Positions 13,051-55,635 of a stretch of DNA of 64,000 bases are shown piece after piece. Source of the DNA: an uncultured Bacteroidales bacterium (lineage in GTDB: Bacteria > Bacteroidota > Bacteroidia > Bacteroidales > VadinHA17); contig CAVRBS010000014.1 of NCBI GenBank assembly GCA_963719235.1, positions 283,588 to 347,587 on the forward strand, written 5' to 3'. Made by a program: the position numbers and the translations under genes. Within the stretch, counting starts at the first letter, position 1. Every line of letters starts with the position of its first letter. The notes under the pieces were generated by a model. The model saw nothing but the letters and a program-made list of their open reading frames with translations. It made no database searches and was not told where the DNA came from.

Positions 13051-16000
13051 CTAAATGGCTTTCGAATTTGCACGTTTATACATGAAGTTCGCCGCAAGCG
13101 CCAGAGCCACCAGCACAATCACCGCAACATAAACAAACACAGGTACCGGCACAGCATCACCTCCGGCATAAGAATGGAGCCCTGACAGGTAATAATTGAC
13201 CCCGAAGTAGGTCATGAGCACTGAAGAAAATGCAAAAAGGGAAAGGAGATTAAAAGCATAAACATCTTTCAGTCCGGGTATCATCCTCGAGTGAGTCACC
13301 AGAGTGTAAATAACTATAGTGATCAGTGACCATGTCTCCTTCGGATCCCATCCCCAGTAACGACCCCATGATTCGTTAGCCCACACAGCACCAAGGAAGG
13401 TCCCGATGGTCAGAAAATAAAGCCCCAGAGTCAGGGTCCTGTAATTGATGACCGTAAGCTCGTCTATCGTAGCGCTGATCCTCTCCTGGTTCTTTTTATT
13501 GACAAAGAGCATCATGATCATCACAATAAGGCCCAGGATAGCTCCCAGACCCAGGAACCCGTAACTGCCCGTAATCACCGAGACATGCAGTGTTAGCCAG
13601 TATGATTTGAGCACTGGCACCAGGTTCGTTATCTCAGGATCCATGAAGCTCATATGCGCTACCATAAGCGTCATCCCGGCCAGAACGGCCGTGGCTGCCA
13701 GCGCCAGAAGCGACTTGCGGCTGAAGATAAAGCCTGCCAGCATCGTGACCCACGAAATGAACAGCATTGATTCATAGCCGTTGCTCATGGGCGAATGGCC
13801 CGAAATGTACCACCTTATGCCCAGTCCTAACGTATGAAAGATAAATCCGGCCACGGCAAGACTGAACAATATTTTCATAAAAATGGAGCCTCCTCCCTTG
13901 CCGGTAATGATGAAGCTGATAAGGGCCATGATCATCAGAAGTCCCAGCGTGGCATAGAAAGGAAACAGCTTCTCAAAGATATTTGCCCTGTAATAGAAAA
14001 GCTCTGCCCTGATGCGTGACTCTGACGGAAGATCATACTCAGAATGAACCCGCTGATATTCCTTTATCGCCCGGAGATACTCTTCAGGCTTTGCCGGAGC
14101 GCTGCCCACAGCAGTGACAGCCTGGGCCCACATCGGAATGACATTGAGTACAAATAGCGAATCTTCAGCACCCGAAGCATGCCTGACAGCATCGCTGGCA
14201 GTTCCCCAATGGTCTGTCCCGTCTTTCAGCGGGAAGATATTCATGAAGCCCCCTTCAGACATCATATAACATATATTTACCCGCTCGTCAACCTTGATAA
14301 CCTCCTTGTCGAAGCGGGTCCGCTCACTTGCAGGTTTTGAATATGCCTTTTCAACGTACGCTGAAAGCTTATACCCTCCTCCGTCGCCAAAGGAAACGAT
14401 GTCCGAAAAAGCAGCCTTGTCGCCCTTCAGCTTCAGCAGACCTGATAACTCTGCATTTGAGACTTTAATAAGAGGCACATTCTGCCAGTGATAAGGGTCA
14501 AGAGAAAAACCCATGAAAACCTGCATAGGCGAGAGGCCTTCAAATTCCTTTTCCCTTGCAACCTTTCGTAAAATGTCACTGCTAATAGTATACAGCGGTT
14601 TGGTACGTCCCTTCTGATCCTGGGCAAGCACCTCCCCGAAACGGTTGGCTTCATCAATGTCAAGGACCAGATGCTGGGCCTTTAAAGGTGAGAGAGAAGT
14701 AAGGGCAAGAAGCATGAAAACCATTGCTGCCAGCCGGCGATACCGTGAATTCCAGTAACCCGTTCTTACGGTCCTGAAGAACGATCGCCTGTTGATTATC
14801 GAGAGAACAATGAACAGGAAAAGCAGGGCATAACCGGCATAGGTCGTAATCATACCTGCCGGATCATGGTTCACTGAGAGCACAGTGCCGAGCTCGTCCT
14901 TGTCATAAGATGACTGATAAAAGCGGAAACCCTTATACTTGAGAATATGATTCATGTATATATCATACTGAAAGTCAGCACCATGGTTTTCATCAATCAA
15001 TGTAACCCGGCTTTTAAAACCCGAAGGACTGTTGGAGCCCGGATACCGTTCAATAATAAAATCGTCAAGAGTGAGACTGAAGGGCAGATTAAGAAGCCTG
15101 TTTCCGTAGCTGACATTTACATTAAGATCTCCTGCAGTGCCGTGCCATTCCGATCTTTCTGCTTCAGGATTGTTCCACAGGTAAATCTTCTTTTCAAAGC
15201 CTTCTCCTGACAGTGTGAACTCAAAGGCGCCGGAACCTGCCTGATCAGTATTTTCAGATGACGGCGCCGGCACTGCCACTCCGCTGAGCGTCATCTGCCG
15301 GGGTACCAGTTTGTATCCTCCGATTGTATATACAGTGCCCGGAACTATGTTAATCAATGTATCGGGCGGGCATATTACCTTCGTCATATCCATCATCCTG
15401 GTCAGCACCATCTCTTTTCCGGATCTGATAAGGAAAGAAGAGCTGTCAAGTAATACAGTTATATCTGCATCAGTACCAAATCCCATGGTCATCTCTCCGG
15501 CCATTGCGGTCTCACCCTGAGCAAGTACAATTATTTCACTCGTCCTCATATCGCGGGTGGCGAGGAAAGCAACCATAGGAACCCCGTCAGGAGATTCTTC
15601 CACCTGTTTTACGGCACCGGGAATGTATCCGTCAAGCGTCAGTTTAACCGCACTTCCGCCAGCCTTGAGAGTCTTCCTGTAACCGGCACGACCGCCGCCG
15701 GCAACAGACAGAGCTTTTGAATGGCCTGCAAGCACAGTGTTATCCATATCAGCCACTTCAAAAACAAGGTCGCTGACCGAAGAATACGTCATTGATGAGG
15801 CCTCCCCCTCCCTGATGTGCATCATGCCGTCAAAACCCGTATAGCGGGTTATTGCCGCACCGATGACCATTACAATAAAGGCGAGATGGAATATCATAAC
15901 GGTAATCTTCTCTTTCCGGTACAGCTTGTATTTTATAATCTGTCCGGCAAGATTGATTACCAGGAGCAGAAACAGCAGCTCAAACCATCGTGTGTTGTAA

Positions 16001-16128
16001 ACCATTGACCTGGCCGTGTCAGCTCCGAAATCATTCTCAATGAATGTTGCTGCGGCCATGGCTGCTGCCAGCAAAATGAATAGTACACCCATTACTGCTG
16101 GAGTAAAAAGAAATCTAAATGCTTTCAT
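13051..16128 (-). CDS. ccsA: System II cytochrome c biogenesis fusion protein CcsBA
   Basis: N-terminal ResB-like TMs with FHLAF and MNHIL.YKGFRFYQSSYD; C-terminal WWD motif WANESWGRYWGWDPKETW and SGLHSY. Confidence 0.95.
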   Translation of the reverse strand: MKAFRFLFTPAVMGVLFILLAAAMAAATFIENDFGADTARSMVYNTRWFELLFLLLVINLAGQIIKYKLYRKEKITVMIFHLAFIVMVIGAAITRYTGFDGMMHIREGEASSMTYSSVSDLVFEVADMDNTVLAGHSKALSVAGGGRAGYRKTLKAGGSAVKLTLDGYIPGAVKQVEESPDGVPMVAFLATRDMRTSEIIVLAQGETAMAGEMTMGFGTDADITVLLDSSSFLIRSGKEMVLTRMMDMTKVICPPDTLINIVPGTVYTIGGYKLVPRQMTLSGVAVPAPSSENTDQAGSGAFEFTLSGEGFEKKIYLWNNPEAERSEWHGTAGDLNVNVSYGNRLLNLPFSLTLDDFIIERYPGSNSPSGFKSRVTLIDENHGADFQYDIYMNHILKYKGFRFYQSSYDKDELGTVLSVNHDPAGMITTYAGYALLFLFIVLSIINRRSFFRTVRTGYWNSRYRRLAAMVFMLLALTSLSPLKAQHLVLDIDEANRFGEVLAQDQKGRTKPLYTISSDILRKVAREKEFEGLSPMQVFMGFSLDPYHWQNVPLIKVSNAELSGLLKLKGDKAAFSDIVSFGDGGGYKLSAYVEKAYSKPASERTRFDKEVIKVDERVNICYMMSEGGFMNIFPLKDGTDHWGTASDAVRHASGAEDSLFVLNVIPMWAQAVTAVGSAPAKPEEYLRAIKEYQRVHSEYDLPSESRIRAELFYYRANIFEKLFPFYATLGLLMIMALISFIITGKGGGSIFMKILFSLAVAGFIFHTLGLGIRWYISGHSPMSNGYESMLFISWVTMLAGFIFSRKSLLALAATAVLAGMTLMVAHMSFMDPEITNLVPVLKSYWLTLHVSVITGSYGFLGLGAILGLIVMIMMLFVNKKNQERISATIDELTVINYRTLTLGLYFLTIGTFLGAVWANESWGRYWGWDPKETWSLITIVIYTLVTHSRMIPGLKDVYAFNLLSLFAFSSVLMTYFGVNYYLSGLHSYAGGDAVPVPVFVYVAVIVLVALALAANFMYKRANSKAI

Positions 16129-21141: not shown

Positions 21142-21978
21142 TTAAAATCTTACAGTAATATTAAGCCCGATCAGGTAGTTGAAGTCGCTGATGCTGTTCT
21201 GATTGTACAGGAAATTGTACTGTCCCAGAATGTCATGGTAATTGGCGAAAAATATCTGGAAGGCGTGTGTTGCCGTTCCGATCTCCCAGCCTGCAGCAAG
21301 CTGCGGCTTTGGGTCAAACTCGGGATTTTCCTGTTTGGTGAGAAGCTGATCGTATTCCAGAATAAGGCTGTGCGAGCCGAAAAGGCTGACTTTTGCACCT
21401 GCGGAGAAGCCGAAATTTGCATTCTTATATCCTACCTCAACAGCATTGAAATAAATAAATGTAGGCGCCAGCTGTAATGACAGTTTGCTGAATTGCTTTG
21501 CAACCAGCACCTGTGTGAAATAATTGAGCCTGTGAATTTCCCTCCAGTCGTCAGCGGCTGATCCGAAATTATCCTTGCTGCGAAGATCAATGCCCATATT
21601 GCCGTACAATGCAACTGAAACAGGCATCGAACCTGATTCAGTCTGCCGGAAAAGAGCATATTTCACAGAAAGATCCTGCGCCATGTAGTTCTTTGCAGTA
21701 CCCACTCCTATGACCAGCTTGTCCGTTATAGCATAATTGAGTCCTAACCTGATATTAGCCGGGCCCCAGAGACCGAACAGGTCATCAAAACCATTGTTGA
21801 CAGTACCAAACCTGTGATGTATCTCAAACTCCAGCATGCCTTTAAAGGGAGTTGTTACCGTTTGATTGTCAATTAAAATGCTGGTTTCAAATAATCTGAC
21901 GGGATAATCCTCGCTTTCCTGGCTGAATGCAGGGACAAACAGCAGCGCGAGAATAATCAATAAGAATGCCTTTTTCAT
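21142..21978 (-). CDS. Outer-membrane beta-barrel protein (DUF5777-like)
   Basis: MKKAFLLIIL signal; FETSILIDNQT...LEFEIHHRFG, IGTATHAFQIFFAN, alternating strands, C-terminal ITVRF. Confidence 0.8.
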   Translation of the reverse strand: MKKAFLLIILALLFVPAFSQESEDYPVRLFETSILIDNQTVTTPFKGMLEFEIHHRFGTVNNGFDDLFGLWGPANIRLGLNYAITDKLVIGVGTAKNYMAQDLSVKYALFRQTESGSMPVSVALYGNMGIDLRSKDNFGSAADDWREIHRLNYFTQVLVAKQFSKLSLQLAPTFIYFNAVEVGYKNANFGFSAGAKVSLFGSHSLILEYDQLLTKQENPEFDPKPQLAAGWEIGTATHAFQIFFANYHDILGQYNFLYNQNSISDFNYLIGLNITVRF

Positions 21979-22000
21979 AGTTATCTGGATTATTAGGTTT

Positions 22001-22381
22001 TTATTTTTTATTGTTTTTGGCTCCTTGTGATGCCCACAGCTTAATGACATCGTTAAAATAATACGTAACGGTGTCGTTAACCTGTACGGGAGTATTGAAG
22101 TTGTTTACGCTGCCATGTATCACAAAAATATGGCTGTCATCCGGATTTACAGTGTCAACTTCCGAAACGAGCTCATTGTAAATCTTATTCCGCGTCCATG
22201 TGTGACAGCCTGAGCATTTAGGCAGAATGTGCTGTTCAAAGCTGATAATAATATCTTCGTTTATTACCGGTGGTTCAGGCGGTGTCCACAAGTACTTTTC
22301 ACATGAAGAGAGGCCTGCAAGACCTATCGCAATAACCGCGAAGGCAAGCACCCTGAAAAATCTATCCTTTCTTGTCATCAT
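22001..22381 (-). CDS. Small monoheme cytochrome c lipoprotein
   Basis: LSSC lipobox, Pro-rich linker, ISFEQHILPKCSGCH, IKLWASQGAKNN C-terminus typical of Bacteroidota/planctomycete-type cytochrome c domains. Confidence 0.8.
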   Translation of the reverse strand: MMTRKDRFFRVLAFAVIAIGLAGLSSCEKYLWTPPEPPVINEDIIISFEQHILPKCSGCHTWTRNKIYNELVSEVDTVNPDDSHIFVIHGSVNNFNTPVQVNDTVTYYFNDVIKLWASQGAKNNKK

Positions 22382-22404
22382 TATTTTTATTGTTATTTAA
22401 AAAA

Positions 22405-22524
22405 CAAAGATATCAGAATAAGATATCGGATTTTTTCAGACGGTACCTTATTTAGTTGATTGATAGCTGCTTCTTATCAATCATTAAATTGATATAAATC
22501 GCACATATGGATGATAAATATCAA
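22405..22524 (-). promoter_or_regulatory. Promoter of the minus-strand cytochrome operon with phased Fnr-like boxes
   Basis: -7 element TATCTTTG (22405-22412, - strand); boxes CTGCT-TCTT-ATCAA (22467), TTGAT-ATAA-ATCGC (22489), ATGAT-AAAT-ATCAA (22511), 22-bp period. Confidence 0.75.
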
Positions 22525-53666: not shown

Positions 53667-55166
53667 TCAATACAGATATCTGTGGCACTCGGAACAATTG
53701 GCTTCTTTCCAACTTGTTCCTATATCTATGGGGTGCTGAAATTCAAGCGTATCCCTGATATTGGTGTATTGCATCATATCGGGTTTGCCCTGACCGATAA
53801 TAGTGTGACATAAGTTACAATCCTTTGTAATTTTTTTCCCCTTTTCCGATGTGAACGCATCATTGTGGCACCTGAAACATCCTTCCACCTCAAGATGTCC
53901 GATATGATTGGGGTAGACATCATAAGATACTTTCATTGCAGCAAAAGTGTTCTGGCTGTAGGCTTTCTGGAGTGCTGTCACCGACTGATCAATTCTGGCT
54001 TCATTTTTTTCAAAATAGTCGCCGAAGTCGGACTTGTAATAATTTATGATCCCGTCTCTTATCTGCATCAATGCAGTGTCCTTATCAGTGAATGTATTTC
54101 TGAGAATACCCATCGCTGTCCTTTTTATATAGGGAATATCCTTTGACACTTCATCTGTAAGCATAGCCTTGTCAAAATAAACAGGCGGGGAGTTGTAATA
54201 GTGAGAAGGCCTGTTATGGCAATCTATACAATCCATCGTTCTGGTCGAGGCCGCAGTAATAGTACTGTCAGATATTTCATTATCAGGATTTCTGAAAATT
54301 TCAACTGCTCCAGTGAGTTTATTGGTATACTTCACATATGTTATTACCTCACGCTTGTCATTTTCAGAAATATATTCAATACTGATGTCAGGGTTTATAT
54401 GCCAGTGTATTCCTTCTGAAAAGCCAAGATCAGTGTATACAGGTCCGGTTTTCATCTGAAGAATAATATCCCACTCAGAGTTAAGTGAATCGGCCAGGTA
54501 ATACTTTTTTGACTGAAGTTTTCTGGAATAGAATTTCTGGGGCCAATGGCATCTCTCGCATGTTTCCATTGCCGGACGCAAGTCGTGAAGCGGGGTTTCA
54601 ATAGGTGAAGGATATGTTTTTGTAATCACGGCATAAACCTGATGTAATCCTGATAGCTTTGATTTGACATACCATGAGGTCCCTGACCCGACATGACAAT
54701 CGACACAAGCTACATTTGCATGGCTTGAGTTCTGGTAAGCCGTATATTCGGGCTCCATGACTTTATGACAAAGTGTTCCGCAGAATTCTACCAACTCCGT
54801 AAGATGATATGCCTCGAAACTACCATAAGTGGAAAGGAATAGGATAATCAATGTGGCCACTGTAAATCCGATAAAGGCTTTTCTGTGTTTTGGATTGTTC
54901 AGATCAACCGACGGGAACAGTTTTTTTTCATCCCCGGCTGCCGCCGCAGCTCTTTTCCTTGATACCAAAATTCCTACCGGCATCATTATCAGCCCCAGCA
55001 CCAGGAATCCGGGCAGGATAATATAAATGAATAATCCCAGATAAGTAGCGTTCTTACCTAAAACAGTCGACATAACAAAAAGCACAATTATCAGCAGCAG
55101 ATTAATAATTGCAATCAGAGCGCCAATTATTGTAATCCAATTCCTGTAGGAATACTTAAGTTTCAT
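53667..55166 (-). CDS. Inner-membrane heptaheme NapC/NirT-family cytochrome c (ImcH-like)
   Basis: Three N-terminal TMs; CGTLCH, CVDCH, CERCH, CIDCH, CFRCH, CNLCH, CSECH; YVKSKLSG NapC-type motif. Confidence 0.88.
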   Translation of the reverse strand: MKLKYSYRNWITIIGALIAIINLLLIIVLFVMSTVLGKNATYLGLFIYIILPGFLVLGLIMMPVGILVSRKRAAAAAGDEKKLFPSVDLNNPKHRKAFIGFTVATLIILFLSTYGSFEAYHLTELVEFCGTLCHKVMEPEYTAYQNSSHANVACVDCHVGSGTSWYVKSKLSGLHQVYAVITKTYPSPIETPLHDLRPAMETCERCHWPQKFYSRKLQSKKYYLADSLNSEWDIILQMKTGPVYTDLGFSEGIHWHINPDISIEYISENDKREVITYVKYTNKLTGAVEIFRNPDNEISDSTITAASTRTMDCIDCHNRPSHYYNSPPVYFDKAMLTDEVSKDIPYIKRTAMGILRNTFTDKDTALMQIRDGIINYYKSDFGDYFEKNEARIDQSVTALQKAYSQNTFAAMKVSYDVYPNHIGHLEVEGCFRCHNDAFTSEKGKKITKDCNLCHTIIGQGKPDMMQYTNIRDTLEFQHPIDIGTSWKEANCSECHRYLY

Positions 55167-55185
55167 AAATGAAAGATTTTAAGGT

Positions 55186-55635
55186 TTAACCAAGCAGTTC
55201 TTTTACCTTGGCCGAAATCTCTTTGCCGTCAGCCTTGCCAGCAAGCTCTTTTGTGGCGACACCCATCACTTTGCCCATATCTGACGGTGCTTTGGCACCG
55301 ACCCGGTCTATTATGGTTTTCAGGACGTTAACCAGCTCTGCTTCGCTCATCTTTGCAGGGAGATACCCCTCAAGGACAGCGGCCTCAGATTCTTCTTTCT
55401 CATACAGGTCGGGTCTTTTCTGTTCCCTGTATATAGTTGCTGATTCCTTTCTCTGCTTGACGAGTTTCTGAATGATTTTAATTTCTTCATCAGCAGTAAG
55501 AACTGTATCAGGGCCCCTCTCTGCTTTAGCCAGGATGAATGCCGTTTTTGCGGCGCGCAGGGCTTCAAGCTTACCCTTATCCTGTGCTTTCATGGCGGCC
55601 ATCAGGTCGCTGGCAATTTTTTCCGTGAGTGACAT
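55186..55635 (-). CDS. GatB/YqeY domain protein
   Basis: DLMAAMKAQDK, KLVKQRKESA, YLP, DMGKVMG, LAGKADGK. Confidence 0.93.
   Translation of the reverse strand: MSLTEKIASDLMAAMKAQDKGKLEALRAAKTAFILAKAERGPDTVLTADEEIKIIQKLVKQRKESATIYREQKRPDLYEKEESEAAVLEGYLPAKMSEAELVNVLKTIIDRVGAKAPSDMGKVMGVATKELAGKADGKEISAKVKELLG

Follow-up and report, generated by a model that had tools for sequence, protein, structure and literature searches.

A putative menaquinol dehydrogenase of the ImcH family in an uncultured Bacteroidales bacterium and the cytochrome gene cluster linked to it in relatives

The window analysed here is a 64,000-nucleotide stretch of DNA from an uncultured Bacteroidales bacterium (assembly GCA_963719235.1, contig CAVRBS010000014.1, positions 283,588 to 347,587 of the forward strand), and we describe in it an imcH-like gene, which encodes a putative seven-heme menaquinol dehydrogenase of the inner membrane, together with a cluster of cytochrome genes lying between 13 and 22 kb (Table 1). 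A motif script placed all 14 cysteines of the ImcH-like protein inside its seven heme motifs, one of which has the CX3CH spacing (C129-G-T-L-C133-H134) while the other six are CXXCH. Hydropathy analysis found three hydrophobic stretches within the first 117 residues, and three membrane helices were likewise present in an AlphaFold2 model (mean pLDDT 85.4, pTM 0.80) built from an alignment of 39 diverse homologues. The third helix is directly followed by E124, and the CX3CH motif begins five residues past its end. Residues 94-185 matched the N-terminal NapC/NirT region (PF03264, E 2e-11, 44.4 bits against a cut-off of 24.1), and the C-terminal 90 residues matched Pfam families of class III/c7-type cytochromes. 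The first-pass annotation of this locus, made from the DNA letters, had given the protein 499 residues, three transmembrane segments (TMs), a NapC/NirT region, a leading CX3CH motif and seven hemes in all, a description that was correct throughout.

The heme motifs and the residues around heme 1 are strongly conserved. The motif Cys and His columns were invariant in all 39 aligned homologues, and in a larger alignment of 178 sequences (79 proteins from named loci and this window, plus 99 representatives) heme motifs 1-6 were kept in at least 177 members and the CX3CH spacing in 173, with the heme 7 motif gapped in 54 shorter members. This conservation across homologues indicates that the seven-heme pattern did not arise by chance. 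Six histidines outside the motifs (149, 254, 256, 322, 424 and 478) are invariant or nearly so in the family, which is enough for bis-His ligation of hemes 2-7, and homologues align over 100% of the protein beginning at residue 1, which shows that the start codon is right. Near heme 1, K170 is kept in 177 and Q176 in 167 of the 178 sequences, E124 in 128 (with Asp in 39 more) and Y185 in 137 (with Phe in 26 more). An AlphaFold model of Geobacter sulfurreducens ImcH, as described in preprint 10.1101/2023.05.03.539133, gives heme 1 the ligands H137 and Q179 and the other hemes bis-His ligation, and the same source reports that E127, K173 and Y188 around the heme 1 pocket are conserved among homologues. 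Residues E124, H134, K170, Q176 and Y185 of the window protein would correspond to E127, H137, K173, Q179 and Y188 at a constant offset of -3, a mapping that we infer from the published residue numbers. M137 (54756-54758), three residues past the heme 1 His, is kept in 175 of the 178 family members, and phmmer aligns it with the Met of the NrfH CXXCHXM motif, the residue that serves as proximal ligand of heme 1 in NrfH.

The predicted model also contains a strand-rich insert between hemes 3 and 4, with DSSP strands at residues 215-223, 231-239, 261-267, 275-282 and 288-292. This segment, which is confidently predicted and unusual in a multiheme cytochrome domain, holds the invariant H254 and H256, and it found no match among solved structures in two whole-model searches (Foldseek and VIA-align). 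The wide VIA-align search with the whole model mostly paired helices 1-2 with unrelated helical hairpins (best Z 8.9) and was uninformative for the periplasmic domain.

These features are those of ImcH. The G. sulfurreducens protein (GSU3259) is described as an inner-membrane heptaheme menaquinol dehydrogenase that is needed for acceptors above about -0.1 V, and ImcH and its homologues in the Geobacter group are given as proteins of 495-519 residues with three TMs, a CX3CH motif by the TM domain and six CX2CH motifs (PMC6295460, PMC4251993). The window protein falls in the same length class and has the three N-terminal TMs, the CX3CH motif first, after the membrane domain and close to helix 3, and the six CXXCH motifs; its NapC/NirT homology is confined to helix 3 and the first hemes, as in ImcH, and the heme 1 pocket residues E, H, K, Q and Y are all present, with E, K, Q and Y at the constant offset given above. 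Support also came from a protein of a Desulfuromonadales bacterium (498 residues), whose name was found among 10 representative clusters that were looked up: it is 41% identical to the window protein over 491 residues (E 4e-135), and the seven motifs and four pocket residues align between the two. A protein from a Melioribacter metagenome-assembled genome (MAG) showed 50% identity. ImcH homologues are attributed to both groups in PMC6295460 and PMC4251993. By every sequence criterion tested, the window protein belongs to the ImcH family, and the ImcH-like identity proposed in the first-pass annotation is thus upheld by the published hallmarks and by scores below the cut-offs of the NrfH, NapC and TorC models. 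The protein is an ordinary member of a known family, since Bacteroidota homologues of both ImcH and cbcBA are already in print; one Bacteroidota ImcH homologue is listed in Table 1 of PMC6295460, and the discussion of preprint 10.1101/2023.05.03.539133 calls ImcH homologues "widespread", Bacteroidota included.

NrfH, NapC and TorC could be set apart by score. NrfH was the best NCBIfam match (TIGR03153), at 66.0 bits against a cut-off of 134.2, or 59.9 bits in the genome search; the NapC/NirT model TIGR02161 gave 16.7 bits against 310.6, and the TorC models TIGR02162 and NF011606 gave 22.3 against 478.2 and 19.9 against 455, respectively. NrfH was also the best match in the PDB: phmmer aligned window residues 90-223 with chain 2j7a_C (E 7.8e-6), and Foldseek returned the same Desulfovibrio vulgaris chain as the best solved structure (115 columns, 23% identity, TM(target) 0.55, probability 1.00, E 0.021), in agreement with the superposition on NrfH reported in preprint 10.1101/2023.05.03.539133. 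The D. vulgaris protein and the window protein are alike in the anchor helix and the first heme-binding region, including a Lys near heme 1 and a Met past the first motif; however, NrfH has one TM, four hemes, a CXXCHXM motif and an adjacent nrfA, whereas the window protein has three TMs, seven hemes and CX3CH. CymA of Shewanella oneidensis resembles the ImcH type in supplying several periplasmic partners from a quinol site of the NapC/NirT type, but it is described in PMC6295460 as a protein with one TM and four hemes, reported there from Proteobacteria only. ActA of alternative complex III (ACIII) presumably differs from the window protein in architecture. A relation of the imcH-like gene to ActA or ACIII was considered and rejected, the NrfCD-like genes of this genome being located on other contigs beside COX1 and not near the gene.

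When the NrfH model was run over 151 Bacteroidales genomes, nearly one per family, three tiers of matches were obtained: true NrfH, at 152-177 bits in frames of about 170-240 residues, in 66 genomes; a middle tier at 65-81 bits in frames of about 500-550 residues; and the ImcH-like genes at 46-61 bits. True NrfH was carried alongside in 17 of the 27 ImcH-positive genomes, and this co-occurrence indicates that the two are paralogues with separate roles. A FastTree phylogeny of the shared region, which took in ImcH-like, NrfH and NapC/NirT-FGE fusion proteins and left out NapC, CymA, TorC and ActA, separated all 40 ImcH-like sequences from the 10 NrfH sequences with a split support of 0.987. The source genome itself, which is 83% complete, contained no NrfH above the TIGR03153 cut-off and no NrfA above the cut-off of its family (best PF02335 match 16.5 bits against 24.1), although the incompleteness of the genome means that the absence of NrfA is not proven. 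Clustering with NrfH or NapC, together with a partner nitrite or nitrate reductase elsewhere, had been named in the first-pass annotation as the case that would speak against ImcH; checked with respect to NrfH, the tree split, the scores under the cut-offs and the lack of an NrfA above cut-off all favoured the ImcH assignment.

The NapC/NirT-FGE fusion, which is the middle-tier match of the source genome, is encoded at C28:221647-223191 on the minus strand (L001:457-2001; C and L denote contigs of this genome and loci, respectively). It is a 514-residue protein in which a tetraheme NapC/NirT domain (PF03264, E 1.1e-29) is joined to an FGE-sulfatase domain (PF03781, E 1.1e-37), and the next open reading frame (ORF) downstream starts with a twin-arginine-like signal (RRSFLG). 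At least 20 other Bacteroidales genomes hold middle-tier NrfH-model matches (65-81 bits, frames of about 500-550 residues) that may represent the same fusion.

Table 1. The imcH-like gene, its parts, and the genes of the 13-22 kb cluster (positions within the window)
Feature	Position	Strand	Basis or remark
imcH-like gene, 499 aa, ATG start; putative menaquinol dehydrogenase	53667..55166	-	ORF; PF03264 + PF02085
Membrane helix 1 (residues 10-36)	55059..55139	-	AlphaFold2 helix, hydropathy
Membrane helix 2 (residues 41-77)	54936..55046	-	AlphaFold2 helix, hydropathy
Membrane helix 3 (residues 92-123)	54798..54893	-	AlphaFold2 helix, hydropathy; counterpart of the single NrfH anchor
NapC/NirT-like region (residues 94-185), hemes 1 + 2, putative quinol site	54612..54887	-	PF03264
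Heme 1 motif CGTLCH (CX3CH), residues 129-134	54765..54782	-	motif script
Heme 2 motif CVDCH, from residue 154	54693..54707	-	
K170...Q176, conserved Lys and Gln proposed as heme 1 distal ligand	54639..54659	-	
Heme 3 motif CERCH, from residue 203	54546..54560	-	
Beta-strand-rich insert between hemes 3 and 4 (residues 215-292)	54291..54524	-	DSSP on predicted model
Heme 4 motif CIDCH, from residue 313	54216..54230	-	
Heme 5 motif CFRCH, from residue 430	53865..53879	-	
Heme 6 motif CNLCH, from residue 450	53805..53819	-	
Heme 7 motif CSECH, from residue 491	53682..53696	-	
yqeY-like gene, 20 bp upstream of imcH-like gene, same strand	55186..55635	-	PF09424; context only, outside the system
ResB-CcsA fusion, 1025 aa, System II cytochrome c maturation	13051..16128	-	PF01578 + PF05140
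Crp/Fnr-type regulator, 250 aa	16150..16902	-	PF00027 + PF13545; cluster 14
Pentaheme cytochrome c, 398 aa	17060..18256	+	five CXXCH; cluster 5
CbcB-like cytochrome b, 206 aa	19497..20117	-	PF01292; cluster 2
CbcA-like heptaheme cytochrome c, 332 aa	20135..21133	-	seven CXXCH; Pfam c7 + c3 families
DUF5777 beta-barrel protein, 302 aa	21142..22050	-	PF19089, E 3.7e-66

Beyond yqeY, the genes upstream of the imcH-like gene are GH92, priA and a succinyl-CoA-ligase-like gene, and downstream of it lie an HD-domain gene, an FNR-like flavoprotein gene and a DHODH-like gene. No nap, nrf or other reductase gene adjoins it among its neighbours in the window, as the first-pass annotation had stated for the nap and nrf catalytic genes. 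In addition to the genes of Table 1, the 13-22 kb cluster contains two monoheme cytochromes of the cbb3-subunit-III type (PF13442). Its cytochrome b has four hydrophobic segments, with candidate ligands His 16, 53, 167 and 181 in membrane segments, and together with the adjoining heptaheme protein it resembles the CbcBA and CbcL complexes of G. sulfurreducens, bc-type quinol oxidases described as serving low-potential acceptors. The presumed job, menaquinol oxidation into periplasmic cytochromes, is common to these complexes and to the ImcH type, but the proteins are unrelated, and in CbcBA and CbcL it is a diheme cytochrome b that carries out the quinol chemistry. According to the CbcBA preprint, CbcA has a C-terminal TM segment with a His, whereas the window heptaheme protein shows none clearly, and Geobacter cbcBA is under the sigma-54 regulator BccR, whereas the window pair adjoins a Crp-type regulator. 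Because of the lack of a clear C-terminal TM segment with His, and given four candidate His in the cytochrome b, the pair is called CbcBA-like and not an established orthologue.

The family to which the window protein belongs is large. At least 7844 homologue clusters at 90% identity were found at E <= 0.001 among 8000 scored candidates, and clustering at 50% left 3296 representatives, of which 629 had E <= 1e-30; the best 120 homologues are all 455-516 residues long and 71-100% identical. Among the best 80 of 598 confirmed loci, the nearest relatives are uncultured Bacteroidales (65-89% identical), followed at about 50% identity by Prolixibacteraceae (Draconibacterium, Maribellus, Mangrovibacterium), Marinifilaceae (Ancylomarina, Marinifilum, Labilibaculum manganireducens), Ignavibacteria/Melioribacter, Calditrichota, Zixibacteria and KSB1, and at about 44% by Desulfobacterota; no Geobacter locus was among these 80. 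A homologue search seeded with the Desulfuromonadales protein had Syntrophotaleaceae, Syntrophobacteraceae and Desulfobaccales among the matches listed, and Geobacter was not among them. The ESM Atlas returned clusters under the generic name "NapC/NirT family cytochrome c" from Bacteroidota, Verrucomicrobiota, Acidobacteriota, Pseudomonadota and Thermodesulfobacteriota, which bears on distribution only. An imcH homologue was present in 27 of the 151 sampled Bacteroidales genomes, nearly all from different families, and in one of the 27 it is a pseudogene: in genome G067 (21301-22494 of its own contig C22) the frame is broken by four stops (one TGA, two TAG, one TAA), while the CbcB-like gene and the DUF5777 gene are intact, so that this genome is an example of imcH lost alone. 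Loci L034 and L042, both from uncultured Bacteroidales, each carry a pair of complete imcH paralogues, encoded on one strand with a spacing of about 2.5 kb; an NmrA/DUF2867-like gene, a small ORF and a monoheme cytochrome lie in between, and the paired copies belong to separate branches of the tree.

The gene context of imcH in relatives was determined for the best 80 of the 598 loci by calling ORFs and clustering them. Another ORF with at least three hemes was present at 42 of the 80 loci and directly adjacent to imcH at 25. A PF01292-type cytochrome b occurred at 20 loci, in every case beside a 6-7-heme gene on the same strand; the DUF5777 barrel was found at 19 loci, 17 of which also had the cytochrome b, and a c554-type tetraheme protein of about 167 residues was likewise found at 19. 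Less frequent were a 5-6-heme protein (13 loci), ResB-CcsA (12), two monoheme c clusters (cluster 7 at 11 loci and cluster 8 at 10) and a Crp-type regulator (8). ResB-CcsA is usually encoded directly downstream of imcH or of the adjacent tetraheme gene, a placement that would suit a maturation enzyme dedicated to the cytochrome cluster. The usual order, on one strand, is Crp, 6-heme, monoheme, DUF5777, 7-heme, cytochrome b, sometimes a 19-heme protein of about 945 residues, imcH, tetraheme and ResB-CcsA; examples are L040 (Draconibacterium), L049 (Mangrovibacterium marinum), L033, L036 and L029. The best identities of the window proteins to members of the relatives' clusters were 52% for cytochrome b, 41% for the heptaheme protein, 47% for DUF5777, 40% for ResB-CcsA, 44% for the pentaheme protein and 47% for Crp.

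The same association was observed in the 151 Bacteroidales genomes. With the threshold for a cytochrome b orthologue at E <= 1e-40, which was set after a gap from 4e-41 to 1e-23 had been seen, strong matches were found in 36 genomes, namely 23 of the 27 that are ImcH-positive and 13 of the 124 that are ImcH-negative; we attach no statistic to these counts because related genomes are not independent. In 14 of the 23 genomes imcH and the cytochrome b gene lie no more than 7 kb apart on one contig, and in two of them less than 130 bp apart. The co-occurrence check that the first-pass annotation had proposed for its suggested link between imcH and the 13-22 kb locus thus revealed a single gene cluster in relatives (20 of 80 loci, 23 of 27 genomes). 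The yqeY/HD context of the window gene, on the other hand, is common to only two of the 80 loci, both from the closest relatives, and the simplest reading is that imcH moved out of the cytochrome cluster in this lineage and now lies about 33.6 kb from it.

Clusters of the cbcBA-like type are mentioned for Prolixibacter, Marinilabiliales and Labilibaculum in the CbcBA preprint, but in open-access papers and bioRxiv we found no description of the joint imcH/cbcBA-like/DUF5777 cluster and no mention of DUF5777. What is new here is that Bacteroidales conserve this joint cluster and that the source genome has it split. A functional connection between the ImcH-like protein and the CbcBA-like pair is favoured by their conserved linkage and by the Crp-type regulator that they share, although co-location and the regulator fit two parallel quinol oxidases and two parts of one module equally well. 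Potential-dependent branching of electron export between ImcH and CbcBA, which the first-pass annotation had offered as a suggestion for the two loci of the window, is established, according to the CbcBA preprint, in Geobacter only, which encodes the two separately and regulates each in a different way. One could envisage that ImcH, the CbcBA-like pair, DUF5777, the c554-like tetraheme protein, a periplasmic wire of up to 19 hemes and ResB-CcsA are inherited together in Bacteroidales (Prolixibacteraceae, Marinifilaceae and many uncultured lineages of sediments) as one cluster serving extracellular electron transfer, in which the two quinol oxidases are kept together for different acceptor potentials and DUF5777 represents a small and new class of conduit for electrons in the outer membrane, the source genome having a rearranged version; we put this forward tentatively and think it rather doubtful as a whole. 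If it were true, abundant polysaccharide-degrading Bacteroidales of sediments would be metal or humic respirers.

For the window protein alone a firmer proposal can be made: it is likely to be an inner-membrane heptaheme cytochrome c of the ImcH family that passes electrons from menaquinol to the periplasm and from there, most likely, to an extracellular acceptor. The steps of this path, that is quinol oxidation, its electroneutrality, the periplasmic partner and the extracellular acceptor, are all ones that we infer from work on G. sulfurreducens ImcH. The three N-terminal helices would serve as membrane anchor, and menaquinol may bind at the membrane surface, between helix 3 and an amphipathic helix that shields heme 1. 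Oxidation would occur on the periplasmic side, in a pocket like that of NapC, NirT and NrfH at heme 1 (E124, K170, Q176, Y185), and protons would exit to the periplasm by way of E124, K170 and Y185, so that the quinol step itself would be electroneutral. The seven hemes, which are closely spaced, would then conduct the electrons to a periplasmic cytochrome, either soluble or associated with the membrane, and from it the electrons would proceed most likely through multiheme cytochromes and an outer-membrane barrel to an acceptor outside the cell, e.g. Fe(III), Mn(IV) or humics. In relatives the candidate acceptor of these electrons is the tetraheme protein encoded just downstream, and in the source genome the candidates are monoheme or larger multiheme cytochromes. 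Eleven ORFs with at least three CXXCH motifs were found in this genome, among them adjacent 13-heme and 20-heme ORFs with c7-type repeats on C11 and 8-heme proteins on C17, C27 and C33.

A number of observations weigh against this proposal. Homology to the characterised G. sulfurreducens ImcH was assessed by way of the Desulfuromonadales proxy and the published residue numbering, the ImcH-like clade is only weakly parted in the tree from its sister, the NapC/NirT-FGE fusion (support 0.485), and the ligation of heme 1, whether by His and Gln as the preprint models it or with M137, is uncertain. Housekeeping genes surround the imcH-like gene, which is separated by 33.6 kb from the cytochrome cluster on the same contig (C14) and is 20 bp past yqeY, in contrast to Geobacter imcH, which is described as monocistronic (PMC4251993), and to the typical Bacteroidales gene, which is usually found within a cytochrome cluster with a CbcBA-like pair. 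Homologues of the c554-like tetraheme protein and of the 19-heme protein of about 945 residues were not found in the source genome by tblastn (E < 1e-5), a negative that is not evidence of absence because the genome is 83% complete. Nor was any small three-heme ORF found in a genome scan of ORFs of at least 80 residues, which would miss much shorter ones, and no Ppc-type triheme partner is evident. No experimental test of a member of the Bacteroidota clade was found in open-access papers and bioRxiv. Finally, the source genome has an ACIII-like NrfCD module with heme-copper oxidases, as well as a bd oxidase, so that oxygen could be the final sink; because of these oxidase modules, an exit route to the outside is an interpretation and not a result.

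This last point leads to the alternative that the ImcH-like protein is a quinol:cytochrome c oxidoreductase of periplasmic or aerobic respiration, which would deliver electrons to the monohemes of the 13-22 kb cluster and then to a heme-copper oxidase or a periplasmic reductase. The two PF13442 cytochromes of that cluster are of the oxidase-donor type, monohemes also flank imcH in relatives at the frequencies given above, and COX1 matches above cut-off were obtained at four places in the source genome; moreover, two kinds of quinol:cytochrome c module are neighbours of imcH in other phyla, namely NrfCD-like modules (8 of 80 loci) and Rieske/cytochrome b complexes (4-5 of 80). However, the ACIII-like NrfCD modules of the source genome are already directly beside COX1 on C1, C2 and C18, and the commonest neighbours of imcH are large multihemes (with 7, 19 or more hemes) and a barrel rather than oxidase genes. 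The hemes of Geobacter ImcH, reported in preprint 10.1101/2023.05.03.539133 to titrate between -350 and -150 mV, are also low for a donor to an oxidase-type cytochrome c. Taken together, we judge such a role unlikely for the window protein.

A still smaller chance is given to the idea that the protein is an anchor of the NrfH/NapC type whose partner, a nitrite, nitrate or other periplasmic reductase, is encoded elsewhere. The NapC/NirT homology and the best NCBIfam and PDB matches to NrfH point that way, but every curated score is below its cut-off, no NrfA reached the cut-off in the 83% complete genome, no reductase gene is adjacent, a separate true NrfH exists in most ImcH-positive genomes, and three TMs with seven hemes are found in place of the one and four of NrfH. 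It is equally improbable that the protein works in reverse, as a quinone reductase taking in electrons from outside the cell through Fe(II) oxidation, a cathode or a partner cell. Families such as CymA and CbcL/MtoC do occur in both reducers and oxidisers according to PMC6295460; in the same survey, however, ImcH homologues are reported from Fe(III) reducers only, with none in metal oxidisers, and the neighbouring genes (GH92) mark the present genomes as those of carbohydrate-degrading heterotrophs.

Parts of the window were recovered from 20 sequencing runs belonging to 16 studies; 10 of the runs hold half or more of the sampled words, and the run labels are sediment, freshwater sediment, freshwater and metagenome. 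Two sediment metatranscriptome runs contain short contigs that match small parts of the stretch. A 188-nt contig from an RNA library spans the end of yqeY and the start of imcH (55036-55223) with four differences, and a 594-nt contig of about 92% likeness (54636-55224) probably comes from a relative. Since the contigs show neither transcript nor strand and the libraries may contain DNA, they are at most a weak hint of expression. A scan for promoters and terminators found no terminator between yqeY and imcH, and it returned three promoter-like sites against 6.4 in shuffled sequence, by a method that does not cover Bacteroidota promoters.

Few markers of electron export to high-potential metals and electrodes can be recognised from sequence, and ImcH is one of them; its family is very large in Bacteroidales of sediment and fresh water, where it is physically linked to a CbcBA-like pair. 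The size of the family and this linkage suggest that bacteria usually seen as fermenters or glycan degraders may respire extracellular acceptors. Cultured bacteria that carry the full cluster, such as Mangrovibacterium marinum (L049), Maribellus sp. (L027) and Labilibaculum manganireducens (L043), the last a member of the Bacteroidetes from Baltic subsurface sediment by its published title, offer a route to testing in another phylum the division of redox potentials between ImcH and Cbc complexes that is established in Geobacter only.

The source genome contains further genes of related type. Two paralogues of about 770 residues, at L088:3307-5610 (C17) and L089:3126-5471 (C27), each combine eight CXXCH motifs with HEAT and TPR repeats in a single fused chain. 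On C31, a 457-residue pentaheme protein (L003:850-2223), which is c554-like with a weak PF03264 match, is followed by an ORF of at least 276 residues (L003:3-830) with a signal peptide, a single CXXCH near the N-terminus and no Pfam family; the two are possibly a cytochrome-barrel pair. Nearly alike sets of genes at C1:20134-25975, C2:19465-25321 and C18:26229-32071 encode an NrfC-like 4Fe-4S protein, an NrfD-like membrane protein and COX1, and look like an ACIII-like module with a heme-copper oxidase. The COX1 copy on C18 has an in-frame TGA, and the triple occurrence may reflect strain heterogeneity or redundancy of the MAG, for which contamination is 5%. Subunit I of the bd oxidase (PF01654, E 5.6e-167) is encoded at C14:271541-273055, about 10.5 kb upstream of the start of the window on the same contig.

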